Notes under the pieces: model-generated | What the model saw: only the letters and a program-made list of their open reading frames with translations | The model's database searches: none | What the model was told of the DNA's origin: nothing | Program-made: the position numbers and the translations under genes | Shown: in pieces, positions 30,542 to 39,417 of the stretch | Position numbering within the stretch: the first letter of the stretch is position 1 | Layout: each line of letters begins with the position of its first letter | From: a virus | Taxonomy: Duplodnaviria > Heunggongvirae > Uroviricota > Caudoviricetes | Direction: 5' to 3' (one strand) | Virus record (IMG/VR): IMGVR_UViG_2671181055_000004 | Length of the DNA stretch: 39,417 nt

Positions 30542-30866
30542 TATGTATCCCCTGTAATTCCGGCAAGGCCGAAAGATGGCACCAGTGCGTCACCTGTCCG
30601 TCCTCATCTTCAAGGCAGGCTCCGGTTTCTTCATCAATAAAAAAGCCTTCATACCCCATATGGCCGATGCGCAGTTCCTGTTGGTCACCATACTGAACAA
30701 TCAGCACGACAGCCTCCATATCAGGCGGAAATGCGTCATCCAGTGAATGCCAGGGATAACCGCGCAAATCCCCGAAATAAACGCCGGTCAGCGTTCCGCC
30801 ACAGAGCGGCATTCCGGCGGCACACACAAGAGGTTCATCTGATTCAACAAATAAGGTCGTTATCAT
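30534..30866 (-). CDS. Hypothetical acidic 110-aa protein
   Basis: ATG 30866 overlaps the upstream stop (ATGA); Asp/Glu-rich (e.g. IDEETGACLEDEDGQ). Confidence 0.5.
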   Translation of the reverse strand: MITTLFVESDEPLVCAAGMPLCGGTLTGVYFGDLRGYPWHSLDDAFPPDMEAVVLIVQYGDQQELRIGHMGYEGFFIDEETGACLEDEDGQVTHWCHLSALPELQGIHNG

Positions 30867-31414
30867 GGCGTTAACTCCCGTAATACAGCGTCCTCGGCAG
30901 TCCGGCGACGGTAATAAACTGCGTGAGCAGAATGTTCAGATATTCCAAACTTTTCGCCAATTTCCCGGAATGACAGACGGCGTGGGTAATCGGAATCACG
31001 CAGCTCACGTATAAGACGTACATCATCATCAGATATGCGCGTGCCGGGGCGTAACTCTCCGCACTTTGTTAATCCAGCACCAATCATTCCTGCCCGACAT
31101 CTGACAGAATCTTTATTACGTCCGAGATATTCTCCCATTTGCTGGCAGGTCATTGTTCTGGCATTTTTTCGAATAAACTTATCTTCATCAGGTGTAAATC
31201 TTGGGTGTTTATATTTCAGTAACTCCGGGTATGAACTGCGCAATACACCAGTCCGGTTATATACAGCCCAGACAGTTCTTTTTATTCTGGCAGCAATATC
31301 CTTAACCGGGGTGGATGAATAAAGCGCAATCAGCAGCGCATCTTCTTCAGGTGTCCACGGACGGACATGAGCGGGGGCGCGACCTTTTAGTCCCATGGGT
31401 TGTAATTTCATCAT
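30863..31414 (-). CDS. Hypothetical DNA-binding protein with three helix-turn-helix-like repeats
   Basis: 183 aa; repeats WTPEEDALLIALY..., FTPDEDKFIRKNA..., ISDDDVRLIRELR... each followed by a basic helix. Confidence 0.45.
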   Translation of the reverse strand: MMKLQPMGLKGRAPAHVRPWTPEEDALLIALYSSTPVKDIAARIKRTVWAVYNRTGVLRSSYPELLKYKHPRFTPDEDKFIRKNARTMTCQQMGEYLGRNKDSVRCRAGMIGAGLTKCGELRPGTRISDDDVRLIRELRDSDYPRRLSFREIGEKFGISEHSAHAVYYRRRTAEDAVLRELTP

Positions 31415-32611: not shown

Positions 32612-33142
32612 TTATTTATTCAGTCCGGCGTCCTGTTCAAAAGGCTCGACATAAAAACTTTCAGCGCCTTTATTCACCTTGATACCGGCAATGCCTTTCA
32701 CAGCATCCGGCTCCGCCAGGACGGCTTCCTTGTTCACTTCCTCTTTCGTGCGGATGAAACGCTCAAGCCCCATACGGCGCAGCATTTCAATCACACCTTC
32801 CACATCACGGCTGACGCTGCATGATGGCGTTCCCAGCCGCCATGACACCGTTCCGGTGGTCAGATTGGCTGTTTTGGTTTTGCCGCCGTTCGTCAGCTCA
32901 TCACGGTTGGTTTTGCACCAGTCCTGAATCCCTTTAAAAAGCACTTTGATTTGCTTTTTAAGATTTTCAATCTGCGGCGTATAACGGGCGGTGATTTCTG
33001 CCACTTCGTCATTCATCGCCGTTTCCAGGCGCAGCGCCTCTCGCTGAATATCTCCCAGGGTGCGGATATCACGGCTGACTTCTTCCCGGGTCTGCGGTGC
33101 CGCCTCGGCTGCGGCCTTTAATTTTGTAACGCGTTTAGCCAT
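32612..33142 (-). CDS. gam: Gam-like host-nuclease inhibitor (DNA-end binding protein)
   Basis: 176 aa; ...RTLGDIQREALRLETAMNDEVAEI...CKTNRDELTNGGKTKTANLTTGTVSWRLGTP...LERFIRTKEEVNKEAVL... closely parallels Mu Gam as I recall it. Confidence 0.85.
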   Translation of the reverse strand: MAKRVTKLKAAAEAAPQTREEVSRDIRTLGDIQREALRLETAMNDEVAEITARYTPQIENLKKQIKVLFKGIQDWCKTNRDELTNGGKTKTANLTTGTVSWRLGTPSCSVSRDVEGVIEMLRRMGLERFIRTKEEVNKEAVLAEPDAVKGIAGIKVNKGAESFYVEPFEQDAGLNK

Positions 33143-33153
33143 TTTGTTTTTCC

Positions 33154-33447
33154 TTATTGCAGTGTGCCTGATGCTTTATGCACGCGGTGGCGTTTAATGA
33201 TGGCATCCGCTCCAAAAGACTGTGCAGATGCCTGAAATTCCGCTGAGAGAAACTGAATAATTGCAGGACTGTGATACTGGAGAATACTTGCATAAACGTC
33301 ACAGAGTGACGTCGGCCTGTTATCCGTATCACGTTCTGTTTTCACATCCACTCCAATCTTTTCATGCACTTCAACACAGTCATTGCCTGCCAACTTTTCG
33401 TCATGCGAAACATGATTAAATTCAAAAATAACGCGTACTTTGCTCAT
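33154..33447 (-). CDS. Small protein, paralog B of a tandem pair (start at the internal ATG 33447)
   Basis: MSKVRVIFEFNHVSHDEK... shares its N-terminus and overall pattern with the upstream gene. Confidence 0.5.
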   Translation of the reverse strand: MSKVRVIFEFNHVSHDEKLAGNDCVEVHEKIGVDVKTERDTDNRPTSLCDVYASILQYHSPAIIQFLSAEFQASAQSFGADAIIKRHRVHKASGTLQ

Positions 33448-33451
33448 GGAA

Positions 33452-33724
33452 TTACCCCTGTTGATTAAATTCATTACCGTTAATAACCCCGGAAGCCATG
33501 CCTCTGTCTTTCATGAATGCACTGGCTTTCATTGCCACAAACTCTGCGAAGTTTCTGCTTTCTGCCAGCATAACCACCCCAAAAATCATGGCGGGTCCAT
33601 TATCTTTCTTCTTTATTCCGGTTGAACGTATATCCAGACTTACCCCTCTGTGCGTGCTGCCATCAGAGTTTTTGCAGATAACATCTTCCTTGTATTCGAA
33701 AATAATGCGTACGACTTTACTCAT
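33452..33724 (-). CDS. Small protein, paralog A of a tandem pair
   Basis: MSKVVRIIFEYKEDVICKNSDGSTHRGVSLDIRSTG...; ATG overlaps the upstream stop (ATGA). Confidence 0.5.
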   Translation of the reverse strand: MSKVVRIIFEYKEDVICKNSDGSTHRGVSLDIRSTGIKKKDNGPAMIFGVVMLAESRNFAEFVAMKASAFMKDRGMASGVINGNEFNQQG

Positions 33725-34002
33725 CCTCTGGTCCTCGTTCTGTTTGGATAACTGACCCGGCGTCTAACCTCACGGCAGAACCGAATCATGGCATTAAAGG
33801 CTTCTTCCTCCGTCACCGCTTCCGGTATCCCCGGAACCAGTAACTGCTCCTGTTCATCACGTCCATGACGCGCCATAACCTCAATCACATGCCGTACCGT
33901 GGCAGGCTTTCCGGCAACTATCGGCAATGCACCTTCCGGCAGGACGTAACCAAACTCAATAAGACCACTCGACCACGCCCATGCAATGAGATTTTTTTTC
34001 AC
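33721..34002 (-). CDS. Hypothetical 93-aa early protein
   Basis: GTG 34002 with GGGAGG 7 nt upstream. Confidence 0.45.
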   Translation of the reverse strand: MKKNLIAWAWSSGLIEFGYVLPEGALPIVAGKPATVRHVIEVMARHGRDEQEQLLVPGIPEAVTEEEAFNAMIRFCREVRRRVSYPNRTRTRG

Positions 34003-34003
34003 C

Positions 34004-34258
34004 TCACACCTCCCAGTAAACCGTGCAGCCGCTGATGCGGGTGGCCTTCACACGGCGGCGCAGGCCGTTGGTCTGTATGGTGATTTCAATTTCACCGGTT
34101 CCCTGCACGTTGCCTACCGGCGGCGTGGTTTTCAGTGCAAAACGTTGCGGATAGCGCTTACTGCGTTCCAGTACCGCACCGGCAAGTTCGGTCAGACGGC
34201 GCGCGCTGTTCAGGGAGTCGAATAAATTCATTTTGTTACCGCAGGATTGCATATTCAT
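34004..34258 (-). CDS. Hypothetical small early protein (start uncertain: 34270, 34258 or 34252)
   Basis: Several in-frame ATGs; GAGGTG precedes ATG 34258. Confidence 0.4.
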   Translation of the reverse strand: MNMQSCGNKMNLFDSLNSARRLTELAGAVLERSKRYPQRFALKTTPPVGNVQGTGEIEITIQTNGLRRRVKATRISGCTVYWEV

Positions 34259-34270
34259 ATAACACCTCAT

Positions 34271-34492
34271 TTAGCTGACTTGTTTCGCACCAACAGAACG
34301 GCATATTCCGCTGTAAACTTCTGTCGCACCTTCGCGATCAAGTCCGGCAGATATCACCATTCGTGTGCGGTCATTAAATTCAAAAAGTAAATCGCCACAT
34401 TCTTTATTTTCGGCCAGTGAAATCACCTTCACGTTATCGAAATTAACCAGGTAAAAGCGTCCGTAAATATCAGGAATATTAAATACCGCCAT
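34271..34492 (-). CDS. Hypothetical 73-aa early protein directly after B
   Basis: ATG 34492 (or GTG 34498) overlaps the B stop codon. Confidence 0.45.
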   Translation of the reverse strand: MAVFNIPDIYGRFYLVNFDNVKVISLAENKECGDLLFEFNDRTRMVISAGLDREGATEVYSGICRSVGAKQVS

Positions 34493-34494
34493 AA

Positions 34495-35436
34495 TCACAC
34501 CTGTGAGAGTAATTCAGGGTTGGTATAAACCTCTTTAAAGGCCGCATTAATATGTTTTTCTGTCAGCGCCGCGCCTTCACCGCTGGCGGTGAGCCACGCC
34601 TGGTTAAGCGTATGTGTCAGAACGCGTAACGCTCCCGGCTTTTCAGCGATAGCCTGCATGACGGCCAGCTCGGCCTCACCACTGATCCCCCACGCCATGG
34701 CAATGGCCAGCACATCCGCCTTTTTGGCCTTGCGAAGTTGTTTTGTACGGGCAAGACGGCTGAACAGGCGCGATAAATCATCAAAGGCGCGGCGTCCACC
34801 TTTAAACAATCCGCGCGGGTTACCAATAAGCACCATCCCGATCCCCGTGGCGTCCTGAATTGCCCGGAGTTGCTCCAGACCGTCAATACCAAGATGATCC
34901 GCCTCATCCACAATCACCAGTCCACGCGTTCCCATCAGGCGACGGCGGATGGCGCGGGATAATGCCCCTTTGTTCGCGCGGGTGTAATCAATCCCCAGCG
35001 CATCGGCCAGCTCCAGCAGACACTCCGTGACGCTGGAGTGCGCGGGTGACAGGGTGATCATCCAGGTGTTTGGTTGCTCCTGGCAGTAATTACGGGCAGT
35101 GGCCGTTTTACCCACACCCGGTACGCCCACAATAACGTTAATACAGCCCATCAGGCGAACCGCCTGAAACAGTGCGCGCAGCTCCTGGACTGTCTGAGTT
35201 TCCACAAACTGCGGCGGTTCCGGCAGTGCGCTTTGTTTATTCCAGTTCTCATACCAGGAGCGCAGGGAAGCAGCCACAGCAGCGTTATCGCCTTTATATT
35301 TTCCCTTACGGAAAGCCGATAATGTGCCGTCGGAAATTCCCGCCTCTCTGGCGATGGCATACTGCGTCAGTACGCCGCCATCAATAAGTTCATCAATGGT
35401 CTTGATTACATCGTTAATATCGGTCATATTATTCAC
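34495..35436 (-). CDS. B: Transposition ATPase B (Mu B-like, AAA+)
   Basis: 313 aa with Walker A GVPGVGKT and N-terminal HTH; directly after the transposase. Confidence 0.85.
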   Translation of the reverse strand: MNNMTDINDVIKTIDELIDGGVLTQYAIAREAGISDGTLSAFRKGKYKGDNAAVAASLRSWYENWNKQSALPEPPQFVETQTVQELRALFQAVRLMGCINVIVGVPGVGKTATARNYCQEQPNTWMITLSPAHSSVTECLLELADALGIDYTRANKGALSRAIRRRLMGTRGLVIVDEADHLGIDGLEQLRAIQDATGIGMVLIGNPRGLFKGGRRAFDDLSRLFSRLARTKQLRKAKKADVLAIAMAWGISGEAELAVMQAIAEKPGALRVLTHTLNQAWLTASGEGAALTEKHINAAFKEVYTNPELLSQV

Positions 35437-35509: not shown

Positions 35510-37597
35510 TCAGGCCAGCGGATCACTTTCTTTTAATTTCGCTTCGAGCAGTTGCAATCCCCGCTGGAAATTACGCTCGTATTCTTCATCAGGTTCATCG
35601 TCAGCGACCGGTTGCTGAACGGTCACCGTATTACCCACAGGGCGGTATATGTTTTCCAGCCAGGGCTCCTGCGGCTTGTGCTCCAGCACGTTGACAACCT
35701 CATCCTCGGCATCACGGATTTTTTCCTCTGCGCGTTTACGCATGCCTTTAAGGCGCTGCTGCTGTTTGTAGTATTCCGCGCTGACAGGGAAGGCTTCGCG
35801 TTTATTGCCGTCCCATACCGCCTCGCAAATCACGCTGCCATCCGGGCGGCGCACGGTAATTCGTTCGGCATCATGAATGTCATAGCTGATAAGTACCTTA
35901 CGGCCATGCTCGTCACGCAGCTCGGGCGCGTAGTAAATATTATTCAGCCAGCGTATTTCACAGCGTCTTACAGGGCGCTCCACCATCGGCCGGAACATAT
36001 CCCGCAGTTCAACATCGGACAGCCATTCAATTTCCGTGTCCTCTTCCGCCAGGCGTTTTTTTCTGAACTCCGCCGGGCTGTAATGTTTACCGTTCGGCTT
36101 CATGGGTAATTCATCGTGCGGCCGGTTGTTGTACCACTCAACACCGTCACGAATGGCATCAATCAGTTCAGACCAGGACGGTAAATCACGCATCGCTGAC
36201 TGCTGCCGGGCGTTCAGCCGTTTGCCCTGTTGCAGGGCACTGAATGCCGAGCGTAAATCGCGGTTGGTTTTACGTAACGTCTCGCGATCTGCTCCTTTCC
36301 CGAAATAGGTGCGGTATTTACGGGCTATGCGCATCGGTAATGTGCGGTTAAGCCGTTCGATAATGCCCCGTCCCTGCGGATTACCGGCAATCCCTGTCGG
36401 GTGATTAATCCCCAGTCGTGGCAGTATCCCCACAATCTCCTTATCCAGGACGTCGGCGGTTTCCCCGGAGCCATTATCCGAGTAATACAGAAACGGTTTG
36501 CCATGATGGCGAATACCGTGCTGTATGGCACCGGCTACGGCGAAAACATTTTCAGCCAGGTCAAGGCTCCAGCCCACCACAAAGCGCGTGCCACCGTCGA
36601 TAACAAAGGTCACTTCCGGTGCGAATGGCCGCCCGTGAACCGGGTGCGCGCATTTCAGCTTCATGCCGTGACCGTCACCAATCCAGACATAATTCACCGG
36701 CATTCTGGACCAGTCGCGGCGCGTGAATCCCTCAAGCTGACGGTATTCACTGCCAGTTACCCGGCCTTTTTGTTTCACCACTTCCGGCAGTTTCTTCATT
36801 GCGCGGCGAATGGTGTCATAAGAGGGCATGATATCGAGCATATAAGGCTCATCAGCGTGCCGGTGCTGCCATTCAGCAACAAAATCCTCGTAAGCCTCGG
36901 TCATTGGTCGGCCGTTTGACTGGCGATACTGCGCCAGAAATTCGGGCAGCCAGTTAATATCTTCGGCTTTTATTTCCTGGCGTTTACCCGGTGCCAGTAA
37001 AAGCAGGCGTTCAGCGGCGTTCTGTGCCTTGTTAAAGGCCGCAATCCAGCGTTTCAGCGTGATTTCACTCAACGCGCGGCTGTTTCCCTTTTTGGCGTTC
37101 GCCGTCTCAACCATTGCCACAATGCGCTCGTCCAGTTGTGATCGTGCCAGGCTGTTAACGAGGAACCGGATAGCTTTAGCGCAGCTGAAACCGGGTTGTT
37201 GCGTGAATTTCAGCACCTCACTGACGATCGCAATGCGTGCGTCTGCCACCTGGCGCTGGTTTTCAGTCAGGGCATTGAGGCGTTCGACCATCAGTTGTGG
37301 TGATCCGCGATATGCCTCCACCGCATCAACCACGGCAGACGAGCGTCTGGCCTTTGTCACCACCGGAGCCGGTGATTCATCGGCTTTTTGCGTCATCAGT
37401 TGCAGGGCATAACGTTCGCGTAATGCCTGCTGTGTCACTTCAGGTAAACAGTCAATGCTGTATTCAAAACCTTTAGCGCCTTTCTTGCGGCGTCTGCTGG
37501 TTTCGCTGGTTGCATACTTCCTGATTGAATAGCGAACGCCTTGCTCCGTTCCCGGCATCCCCGGTAATCCAACCAGTTCTTTAACTGAAGCAAACAT
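35510..37597 (-). CDS. A: DDE transposase A (Mu A-like)
   Basis: 695 aa between ner and B; size and position as in Mu. Confidence 0.85.
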   Translation of the reverse strand: MFASVKELVGLPGMPGTEQGVRYSIRKYATSETSRRRKKGAKGFEYSIDCLPEVTQQALRERYALQLMTQKADESPAPVVTKARRSSAVVDAVEAYRGSPQLMVERLNALTENQRQVADARIAIVSEVLKFTQQPGFSCAKAIRFLVNSLARSQLDERIVAMVETANAKKGNSRALSEITLKRWIAAFNKAQNAAERLLLLAPGKRQEIKAEDINWLPEFLAQYRQSNGRPMTEAYEDFVAEWQHRHADEPYMLDIMPSYDTIRRAMKKLPEVVKQKGRVTGSEYRQLEGFTRRDWSRMPVNYVWIGDGHGMKLKCAHPVHGRPFAPEVTFVIDGGTRFVVGWSLDLAENVFAVAGAIQHGIRHHGKPFLYYSDNGSGETADVLDKEIVGILPRLGINHPTGIAGNPQGRGIIERLNRTLPMRIARKYRTYFGKGADRETLRKTNRDLRSAFSALQQGKRLNARQQSAMRDLPSWSELIDAIRDGVEWYNNRPHDELPMKPNGKHYSPAEFRKKRLAEEDTEIEWLSDVELRDMFRPMVERPVRRCEIRWLNNIYYAPELRDEHGRKVLISYDIHDAERITVRRPDGSVICEAVWDGNKREAFPVSAEYYKQQQRLKGMRKRAEEKIRDAEDEVVNVLEHKPQEPWLENIYRPVGNTVTVQQPVADDEPDEEYERNFQRGLQLLEAKLKESDPLA

Positions 37598-37599
37598 AA

Positions 37600-37830
37600 T
37601 TACGCGACCTTACGAATGTAGCGGCTGGGCCAAATCTCCTCGGGCGGCACCCCCAGGCATTCCGCGATAATCCCCTCATACTTGGGAACATGGCGGTATA
37701 CCGCGTTGTACAGATTGTTCTGACCCACGCCAGCTTTACGGGCCAGCGCCCTCATGCTTCCTTCTCTGGCTCTGACTTCCCCCAAAATTCTTTGAGGATG
37801 CCAATCAGGCTTAACTTCATTTCTCGCCAT
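37600..37830 (-). CDS. ner: Ner-like DNA-binding regulator
   Basis: 76 aa; ...DWHPQRILGEVRAREGSMRALARKAGVGQNNLYNAVYRHVPKYEGIIAECLGVPPEEIWPSRY parallels Mu Ner. Confidence 0.85.
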   Translation of the reverse strand: MARNEVKPDWHPQRILGEVRAREGSMRALARKAGVGQNNLYNAVYRHVPKYEGIIAECLGVPPEEIWPSRYIRKVA

Positions 37831-38015: not shown

Positions 38016-38561
38016 ATGAACAAGCAAACAACAACATCTCTTTCTTTTCCTGGTGGTAGAAAAGAAAGCATTGCTGAGCGTCTGAAAAGGCTGATTGGCT
38101 CCCGCAGCGTCAGAGCTGCAGCAAGAGATTGGGGGCTTTCATTTTCAACACTAAACAATTATCTGTCTCGTGGCACTGAGCCATCCTTAAGTGTCGCCCT
38201 TCAGATTGCGTCTATCGAAGGAGTAAGTGTTGAGTGGCTATGTGGATTCAGTGATGCATCACAAGTGAATCGGTGTGAGATCAAGGAAAATCAAGATGAA
38301 AGCAAGAAGATAATTATGACGATTATCAGCGCACTTGATGAAAAAGACTTAGAGCAGCTATCGAAAAATTTGGTTCTGAATGGAGCCAAGTACTTAGCTC
38401 GGTTGTTAGAGCCTGAAAATCAAGATCTAATCCGCTTAGAAGGAAGGAAAAGAATAGCTGCATTACAGCTTGAAGGTATGTCTGACGAACGCGTCAGAGA
38501 GATTTTGGAAGAAACTGAGAGAAGTCGCAAATCTAACGCGGTAGAACCAAAAGCGGGTTAA
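38016..38561 (+). CDS. c: Prophage repressor (Mu c-like), transcribed toward the left end
   Basis: 181 aa, divergent from ner; N-terminal DNA-binding region, helical C-terminal part; position as in Mu. Confidence 0.7.
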   Translation: MNKQTTTSLSFPGGRKESIAERLKRLIGSRSVRAAARDWGLSFSTLNNYLSRGTEPSLSVALQIASIEGVSVEWLCGFSDASQVNRCEIKENQDESKKIIMTIISALDEKDLEQLSKNLVLNGAKYLARLLEPENQDLIRLEGRKRIAALQLEGMSDERVREILEETERSRKSNAVEPKAG

Positions 38562-38633: not shown

Positions 38634-38807
38634 CAGTATCAAATGAGTTGCCGATTTTATAATAAATGACTAATTATTGCACAATCGGTATCAAATAGAC
38701 CTTATCCGCACATCTAGCCATCACCTGTTTTATTTCAGTATCTTACAGGTGATTTCACCTCCTTTCACTAAACCCCTTGTCGGTATCAAATGATTCACCT
38801 GGTTATA
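38634..38807. repeat. Left-end terminal transposase-binding repeats (three GGTATCAAA-type sites), a 9-bp-stem inverted repeat, and the phage terminus
   Basis: CAGTATCAAATGAG (38634-38647), CGGTATCAAATAG (38685-38697), CGGTATCAAATGATTCA (38781-38797); inverted repeat ATCACCTGT/ACAGGTGAT at 38721-38753; terminus at 38807. Confidence 0.65.
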
Positions 38808-39118
38808 TGTCGCCAGTCGATACCTTCCAGCAGCATCGCCAGCTGCGCCTGTGTAAGGAACACTTTGCCATCACGGGCTGACGGCCAGGCGAAGCGCCCA
38901 CGCTCCAGCCGTTTGGTCAGGAGGCACAGTCCGTCACTGGTGGACCACAGCAGTTTAACCTGACTGCCGCTGCGGCCCCGGAAAATGAAAACATGGCCGG
39001 ACATGGGATCGTCTTTCAGCGCCGTCTGTACTTTCGCAGCCAGGCCGTTGAAGCCATTTCTCATATCGGTGATACCGGCAACCAGCCAAATTTTGATCCC
39101 GGAAGGTAACGGGATCAT
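38795..39118 (-). CDS. tnpB: IS66-family TnpB (orf2), 3' end disrupted: last four codons and stop come from phage DNA
   Basis: MIPLPSGIKIWLVAGITDMRNGFNGLAAKVQTALKDDPMSGHVFIFRGRSGSQVKLLWSTSDGLCLLTKRLERGRF... is a typical IS66 TnpB sequence (recall). Confidence 0.8.
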   Translation of the reverse strand: MIPLPSGIKIWLVAGITDMRNGFNGLAAKVQTALKDDPMSGHVFIFRGRSGSQVKLLWSTSDGLCLLTKRLERGRFAWPSARDGKVFLTQAQLAMLLEGIDWRHITR

Positions 39119-39417
39119 CGCTTCAGTTCCTGTATCAGCAGAGTCAGGAGCTTTTCGCTGACATTGCCATTGAAGCGGAGCGTCCCGTGCCGGAACGTTA
39201 CCTCACAGCTGATACTGAGGGTTTTCGGGTCCTCTGCGAGCGATTCTGGCTGTTCGGCAGCTGCATCGAGAGTCACAGGAAGTAGCTGGGGGCTCTCTGA
39301 AGAAGGTAATAGCTGAGGTGTACTGGCAATAGCGGACACTACCATTTGTTCTTTTTTTAAGCAGCCATCTGATGATATTTTTCCCTGAAGGCTGCCGGGG
39401 AGATATTCCCCAGACGA
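38808..39417 (-). mobile_element. IS66-family element (tnpA-tnpB), interrupted in tnpB by the prophage
   Basis: tnpA/tnpB pair with overlapping stop/start (ATGA); tnpB is cut at ...GIDWR and its 3' end is found beyond the other phage end at 6464-6504. Confidence 0.65.
39115..39345 (-). CDS. tnpA: IS66-family accessory protein TnpA (orf1), possibly N-terminally longer
   Basis: 76-aa ORF translationally coupled to tnpB; assigned by synteny rather than by a recognised motif. Confidence 0.5.
   Translation of the reverse strand: MVVSAIASTPQLLPSSESPQLLPVTLDAAAEQPESLAEDPKTLSISCEVTFRHGTLRFNGNVSEKLLTLLIQELKR

Follow-up and report, generated by a model that had tools for sequence, protein, structure and literature searches.

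The gene gnarl2 (orf63, NP_050611.1) is exactly gp7 of bacteriophage Mu, and the gnarl proteins with which it was described are small stand-alone products of 40-90 amino acids (aa) that have no enzymatic domain (Silas et al., Nat Commun 2025, PMC12373910; preprint 10.1101/2023.04.06.535777). When gnarl2 is expressed in ECOR1 and ECOR22, both of them wild strains, the O-antigen bands are downshifted and T5 infection rises 10^5-10^6-fold, an effect that is phenocopied by disruption of O-antigen genes (PMC12373910); in the screen, gnarl2 was among the accessory genes that are lethal in some hosts, not all (preprint 10.1101/2023.04.06.535777). For gnarl genes generally, the authors suggest that a change in lipopolysaccharide (LPS) guards progeny from debris or blocks superinfection (PMC12373910). 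Gnarl2 is a recent example of a tiny phage protein that alters the O-antigen barrier. Here we analyze two small genes, O4 and O5, of an E. coli Mu-like prophage contained in the 39,417-nucleotide (nt) viral sequence IMGVR_UViG_2671181055_000004 of IMG/VR (the window, by which we mean this whole stretch of DNA); the early region of the prophage is on the minus strand of the window, with the block order B, O1, kil, O3, O4, O5, gam. A paper on the Mu prophage domain contains nothing on the O4 and O5 genes. The profile comparisons described below indicate that the pair is a newly recognized duplicated member of this recently characterized kind of phage accessory protein.

The O4/O5 pair and its wider family

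The upstream, divergent paralog O4 (33452..33724, minus strand; 90 aa, MSKVVRIIFEYKE...) matches phrog_4107 (E 1.7e-54), and the downstream paralog O5 (33154..33447, minus strand; 97 aa, MSKVRVIFEFNH...) matches phrog_2230 over its residues 3-97 (E 1.8e-38). Both open reading frames (ORFs) are where the original prediction had placed them, and RefSeq coding sequences (CDS) in E. coli genomes coincide with both. The N-termini, MSKVVRIIFEY in O4 and MSKVRVIFEF in O5, have the common motif M-S-K-V..(I/V)-I-F-E-(Y/F). In a single BLASTP comparison the two proteins are 22% identical over 76 aa (E 6e-4), and the full-length local score is reached by 1 of 5000 shuffles; the resemblance of the two sequences exceeds chance. 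When the first 10-11 residues are removed, the score is reached by 228/5000 shuffles in local and 15/5000 in semi-global alignment, so that the direct pairwise signal past this segment is weak. A comparison by hhalign of the O4 family with the O5 family, both represented by shallow alignments, returns 85-89% probability (E 2e-6 at 89%) over residues 1-45 only, and when the first 12 columns are kept constant 9/200 shuffles reach the observed score. On pairwise evidence alone, a sharing of the N-terminus only could not be dismissed.

Word-indexed database searches with O4 and O5 recovered narrow families, essentially restricted to E. coli, Shigella and Salmonella, and a full HMMER pass with a combined profile over 1.84e9 representative proteins gave just 16 matches; three of these (P0097, P0102 and P0103) are long repetitive proteins that we judged spurious, and another is a divergent 97-aa protein, MSNKVQVIFTFE, which we call type f. 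A tblastn search of 50,697 phage records with O4 and O5 found only two Stx phage records, which carry an inserted Mu-like element. With Gam as the anchor for retrieving related loci, we collected 23 genome loci and 80 viral loci, in which a hidden Markov model (HMM) of three families identifies one member per locus in Mu-type phages, Kluyvera and other Enterobacteriaceae; in these other Enterobacteriaceae, the combined HMM detects single-copy members directly upstream of gam with better E-values than any single-family HMM. The subfamilies include b (89 aa, MAKVIFEFN), c (89 aa, MAKVIFEFT) and d (MAKVIIE(I/L)TRDF). Types b, c, d and f all match phrog_2230 (E 4e-13 to 7e-40), likewise the PHROG of O5; O4 falls outside it, with phrog_4107 as its best match, and joins the others only by profile-profile comparison.

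That comparison extends well past the N-terminus. By hhalign, O5 aligns with the b+c+d+f profile at 98.9% probability (E 2.6e-17, 77 columns), and O4 aligns with b+c+d+f+O5 at 92.9% (E 3.7e-7, 71 columns) and, with O5 left out, with b+c+d+f at 75.9% (E 2.3e-5, again 71 columns), whereas six unrelated small proteins of the same regions, used as controls, score below 1%. Column shuffles of O4 against the family give z 12.8, and z 10.3 when the first 12 columns are fixed, with 0/200 shuffles reaching the observed score in either case; for the profile without O5 the count is likewise 0/200. By these measures O4 is a genuine family member along most of its length, and since O4 and O5 both match the wider family profile, they are paralogs. 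Different subfamilies are no more than 35% identical, and the family's hosts are E. coli, Shigella, Salmonella and Kluyvera; as judged from the profiles, O4 and O5 are anciently diverged tandem paralogs within one hypervariable phage protein family of 85-97 aa. The original prediction of tandem paralogs is thereby borne out, and it is the wider-family profile, rather than the pairwise match, that disposes of a chance N-terminal resemblance.

We accordingly regard it as very improbable that the likeness of O4 and O5 is due to chance or confined to the N-terminus, or that one of the two ORFs is not a real gene. The weak signal beyond residue 45 and the shuffle counts of the direct comparisons (228/5000 local; 9/200 with the N-terminus fixed) would be expected under such an explanation, but the match of O4 to the family with the N-terminus fixed, even with O5 absent from the profile, would not; moreover, both ORFs are intact in all 19 loci used for the rate analysis below, with a ratio of nonsynonymous to synonymous divergence (dN/dS) of ~0.33, and the 1.45-kb block that holds them is found, nearly always on the chromosome and annotated in RefSeq, in 232 of 5426 complete E. 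coli genomes (~4%), O157:H7 strains included.

One further candidate was rejected. A Pantoea Mu-like prophage (locus L015, 3885-4511) has three consecutive ORFs of 61-75 aa in its kil-gam interval, which are not detectably related to the family (best hhalign 3.5%, E 0.012); each has a hydrophobic strand at its N-terminus and a helix-like pattern after it, similar by eye to O4 and O5.

Gene order, copy number and evolutionary rate

Members of the family occupy a fixed place in the early operon. Mu-type loci have the order B-kil-gp6-[gp7 | b | c]-gp8-gp9-gam, so that b and c, which fill the gp6-gp8 slot, are positional alleles of gp7. The ~40 loci of the window type have B-O1-kil-O3-O4-O5-gam, and a sister lineage (L106-L111), whose B is ~75% identical, has B-O1-kil-O3 followed by a single copy of type f. 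One copy is also the rule in the Mu-type, Kluyvera and MGYG loci; the two-copy state is specific to the window lineage. Of the two, O5 is nearer to the single-copy relatives and O4 is the more derived. The original prediction of a tandem duplication followed by divergence holds as to paralogy, and duplication is the simplest origin because the sister lineages have one copy; gain of the second allele by unequal recombination remains an alternative to it.

Nei-Gojobori estimates from the 19 loci in which all seven genes align ungapped show that the pair evolves far faster than its neighbors: dN is 0.061 for O4 and 0.101 for O5 (dN/dS 0.33 and 0.34, respectively), as compared to 0.003 for B (0.056), 0 for kil (0), 0.004 for O3 (0.084) and 0.011 for gam (0.076); O1 (0.044; 0.28), gp11 (0.018; 0.14) and gp12 (0.022; 0.17) complete the set. 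O4 and O5 have an elevated synonymous divergence dS as well, an indication that alleles have been imported. In locus L112, an O4 that is 57% identical to the window copy stands beside an O5 with only a few residue differences; O4 and O5 alleles have been swapped independently of each other. The variable positions cluster at the tip of the hairpin and in the loops and C-terminal part of the predicted structures described below, and the first ten residues are near-invariant. Evolution of the pair is thus fast and mosaic, with purifying selection still visible, a pattern that fits relaxed or site-limited diversifying selection together with recombinational allele swapping. Of the diversifying pressure proposed originally, the rapid change stands; with dN/dS below 1, positive selection is not demonstrated.

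Natural variants indicate that each gene of the block can be lost and that the block is a deletion hotspot. Locus L036 (3597-3989) retains O5 only, after a clean loss of O3 and O4 that joins the upstream context of O4 to the start of O5; L035-type loci are without O3; L061 (3171-3422) has an in-frame O1::O3 fusion and no kil; and P0030 is a deletion chimera, O4(1-49)::O5(78-97). In the sister lineage, blastp found no Gam between the type f gene and gp11 (L106, 4303-5603; also L109-L111); in L106 this interval encodes two other proteins, one with DUF3164 (PF11363, E 6e-79) and one with DUF5420 (E 9e-13).

The probable link to Mu gp7 and possible functions

Mu gp7 (E6/Mup07, MAKVIIEIKN..., 87 aa) is in a position equivalent to that of O4 and O5. 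It matches phrog_2230 over residues 1-78 (E 0.009) and aligns with the b+c+d+f+O5 profile at 91.7% probability (hhalign, E 7.9e-7, 70 columns); its alignments to merged profiles cover 70-75 columns. Column shuffles of gp7 against the family give z 12.8 (0/200), falling to z 4.2 (1/200) in local mode and z 2.8-3.2 (0-1/200) in global mode when the first 12 columns are fixed. A C-terminal His is common to gp7, b, c, f and one of the two d sequences, and the lengths are comparable (87 aa vs 88-89 aa). The link of gp7 to the family probably holds, on the basis largely of the N-terminal strand, together with the identical position, the equal length and the C-terminal His.

A different account of the same data is that gp7 shares only its 5' end with the phrog_2230 types, through a recombination joint or a translation-start module, and that its body is unrelated, which would leave the O4/O5 family without a functional lead. 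Local hhalign of gp7 against single subfamilies is indeed limited to residues 1-13 for b (59%) and 1-11 for d (70%), the score against b, c and d alone with the first 12 columns fixed is only z 1.7 (12/200, local), and searches of BFVD did not return Mu gp7. We nevertheless consider this account quite doubtful, since the global alignment with the N-terminus of gp7 fixed scores above all 200 shuffles against bcd and against bcdf and above 199 of 200 against bcdfO5, the merged-profile alignment covers 70-75 columns and the phrog_2230 alignment residues 1-78, and the length, the terminal His and the gp6-gp8 slot all agree.

Given this link, we propose tentatively, as an explanation of the whole, that O4 and O5 are expressed, small Gnarl2-like effectors that target the synthesis of envelope polysaccharide. 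On the model of Gnarl2, each would most likely be a small cytoplasmic protein without enzymatic activity, produced from the early promoter (Pe, as is established for Mu) upon induction or infection, that binds a host protein involved in making or modifying LPS/O-antigen and thereby changes the cell surface; two diverged copies might span a wider range of host variants or targets. Mu adsorbs to the LPS core, so that a change in LPS during the lytic phase could protect progeny from debris or block superinfection.

Several observations weigh against this proposal. The connection of gp7 to O4 and O5 is transitive, through the intermediate subfamilies: direct hhalign of gp7 gives 2.6% with O4 and 0.6% with O5, and BLASTP of O4 and O5 against the Mu proteins yields no gp7 match at E<=10. 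Most of the gp7-family score comes from the first 12 residues, as the result for b, c and d alone also reflects. Transfer of function at 25% identity or less, within a hypervariable accessory protein, may not be assured, and it would proceed here by remote homology only. AlphaFold2 (AF2) predicts for O4 (mean predicted local distance difference test score, pLDDT, 80) a long beta-hairpin made up of residues 6-18 and 24-35 and a helix of 30 residues (44-73), and for O5 (pLDDT 72) the same hairpin-helix order; these models were built on combined alignments, so their shared topology is not independent evidence, and a Foldseek search of BFVD with them did not retrieve Mu gp7. Genes of the early operon are repressed in lysogens, which makes lysogenic seroconversion unlikely. 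Finally, affinity purification-mass spectrometry of Gnarl2 showed no clear partner, and binding of an LPS-pathway enzyme is that paper's own hypothesis (PMC12373910).

These considerations leave room for a rival in which the family is the same and the job is another, each subfamily having drifted to a different host or phage protein, such as an intracellular defence or DNA-metabolism factor; the Gnarl2 phenotype would then have little bearing on O4 and O5. The low identity between subfamilies, the cassette-like exchange of alleles, the concentration of variation in the hairpin tip, loops and C-terminal part with only the first ~10 residues near-invariant, the slot among the host-takeover genes kil and gam, and the lethality of gnarl2 in some hosts but not all would each accord with it. 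We consider it rather unlikely, as the sole tested member points to the envelope, the hosts (E. coli, Shigella, Salmonella and Kluyvera) have highly diverse O-antigens that fit a surface-polysaccharide target, and no match to the defence or anti-defence related models searched in PADLOC, Pfam, NCBIfam and PDB was found.

The library searches bear on the original suggestion of an anti-restriction or anti-CRISPR role in the same way. No known fold was matched by O4 or O5 in searches of PDB and BFVD, and the known structural family that would have spoken against the original prediction was therefore not encountered. O1-O5 have no match in Pfam, NCBIfam or PADLOC, and no characterized anti-restriction or anti-CRISPR inhibitor was matched by O4 or O5 in Pfam, PDB and BFVD, which are general libraries, none of them dedicated to anti-defence. 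The suggested role thus gains no support, and the characterized relative Gnarl2, which alters O-antigen, exemplifies a different host interaction. A toxin-antitoxin or defence pair with unrelated partners was also rejected: O4 and O5 are homologous, their relatives occur in one copy, and PADLOC gave no match. The best PDB match of the family profile is to a plant GT1 glycosyltransferase (8jzq_A residues 367-422, E 0.0018), which is borderline and probably a chance match. The matched segment is strand-loop-helix, and related glycosyltransferase entries come next at E 0.67, a curious result given the O-antigen link.

If O4 and O5 are Gnarl2-like effectors, as we tentatively propose, a more far-reaching picture can be drawn, one that we think improbable in its full extent: the gp7/phrog_2230/O4 superfamily would be a set of allele-swapping cassettes built on one conserved N-terminal strand, each tuned to an LPS/O-antigen variant, with O4 and O5 doubled to meet two targets or to form a heterodimer, and with the Mu-type phages stripping or masking their own LPS receptor during lytic growth. 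With the gp7 link, this work sets Gnarl2 in a wider family of at least seven subfamilies in a fixed genomic slot. The near-invariant N-terminal strand and the variable loops and tail of these subfamilies are natural variation that could be used for mapping a target-binding surface, and the same variation could test whether separate alleles act on separate serotypes. Two genes annotated as "hypothetical" in ~4% of complete E. coli genomes would thereby gain a functional lead.

The early block and comparison with known systems

The block is bounded upstream by the transposition protein B, an AAA ATPase (34495..35436, minus strand; "AAA family ATPase" in RefSeq), and downstream by Gam (32612..33142, minus strand; PF07352, E 5.5e-42), which is 57% identical to Mu Gam and beyond which the window has relatives of Mu gp11, gp12 and gp14. 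The first gene after B is O1 (34271..34492, minus strand; 73 aa; phrog_3375, E 1.2e-46). It is followed by O2, a Kil-family protein of 84 aa from the RefSeq start (34004..34258, minus strand; phrog_2679, E 7.8e-46) that is 33% identical to the C-terminal part of Mu Kil and whose homolog in L112 is recorded as PF26843; an alternative start, the ATG at 34270, gives 88 aa. O3 (33721..34002, minus strand; GTG start, 93 aa) matches phrog_1518 (E 3.8e-43), which bears the PHROG label "host nuclease inhibitor". RefSeq has five CDS in the block, of which four or five are "hypothetical" and one is, in some records, "Kil protein family". The remainder of the prophage early region comprises transposase A (35510-37597, minus strand), ner (37600-37830, minus strand) and the repressor c (38016-38561, plus strand).

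The five small genes are spaced by 0-4 nt or overlap by 4 nt. The stop codon of B is separated by 2 nt from the ATG of O1, whose TAA directly abuts an ATG; the TGA of O2 is 1 nt from the GTG of O3; the O3 stop and O4 start overlap as ATGA; and the TAA codons of O4 and O5 precede the ATG codons of O5 and gam by 4 nt and 11 nt, respectively. We found no promoter-like site within the block on its coding strand, and this absence, together with the tight packing, fits a single early transcript from Pe, the promoter from which the Mu early genes are transcribed. The spacers and the assignment of O2 to the Kil family agree with the earlier description of a packed five-gene chain after B, at the position of kil in Mu; this is the kil/semi-essential region.

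Other features of the window and its relatives were noted in passing. A segment of O1 (residues 35-72) is similar to residues 31-69 of Mu Mor (38% over 39 aa; E 2e-4, database of 15 proteins), a likeness that may be chance, and some loci of the Mu type (L087-L089) have O1 where others have gp6. O3 has no significant match among PDB sequences; a homolog of it is found directly before gam in L003 and another after gam in L014 (Ectopseudomonas toyotomiensis), and several E. coli loci are without O3. A 183-aa SANT/Myb-like protein (30863-31414, minus strand) is a relative of Mu gp9 (27% identity, E 3e-6); its gene is downstream of gp12 here, and in Mu gp9 lies just before gam. An IS66-family Orf2/TnpB (38795-39118, minus strand; PF05717, E 1.2e-37), with a small ORF upstream (39115-39345), is located ~230 bp past the prophage repressor gene, so that the prophage is flanked at its left end by an insertion sequence (IS) element.

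Among known systems, Mu Kil and Gam belong to the same operon and to the same dispensable host-takeover class as O4 and O5, from which they differ in being unrelated in sequence and function; the Kil-family gene of this prophage is O2. Gnarl1 and Gnarl3, the latter of which binds GalU, are small proteins of lytic phages that alter O-antigen; the activity proposed for O4 and O5 is of the same kind, perturbation of LPS/O-antigen synthesis by a stand-alone protein through host-enzyme binding, but the phages and genomic contexts differ and no sequence relation is claimed. The family phrog_2230 has O5 as a full-length member and types b, c, d and f as single-copy holders of the same slot, whereas O4 lies outside it, in phrog_4107, and the PHROG carries no function annotation.

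The closest comparison is with Mu gp7/Gnarl2. Its identity to O4 and O5 is 25% or less, and it belongs to PHROG 10252 rather than 2230 (O5) or 4107 (O4); in Mu the single copy precedes gp8 and gp9, whereas in this prophage the two copies come immediately ahead of gam; the C-terminal His is absent from O4 and O5; and the O-antigen phenotype is reported for Mu gp7 (NP_050611.1) only. In common with O4 and O5, gp7 is small (87 aa, as compared to their 90 and 97 aa) and, like them, lacks an enzymatic domain; it occupies the same early-operon slot in the kil-gam interval, has the N-terminal strand motif M-(A/S)-K-V..I-(I/F)-E and a colinear hydrophobic pattern, and is connected to them by a profile link of ~90% probability, via the alleles that Mu-type phages carry in place of gp7.

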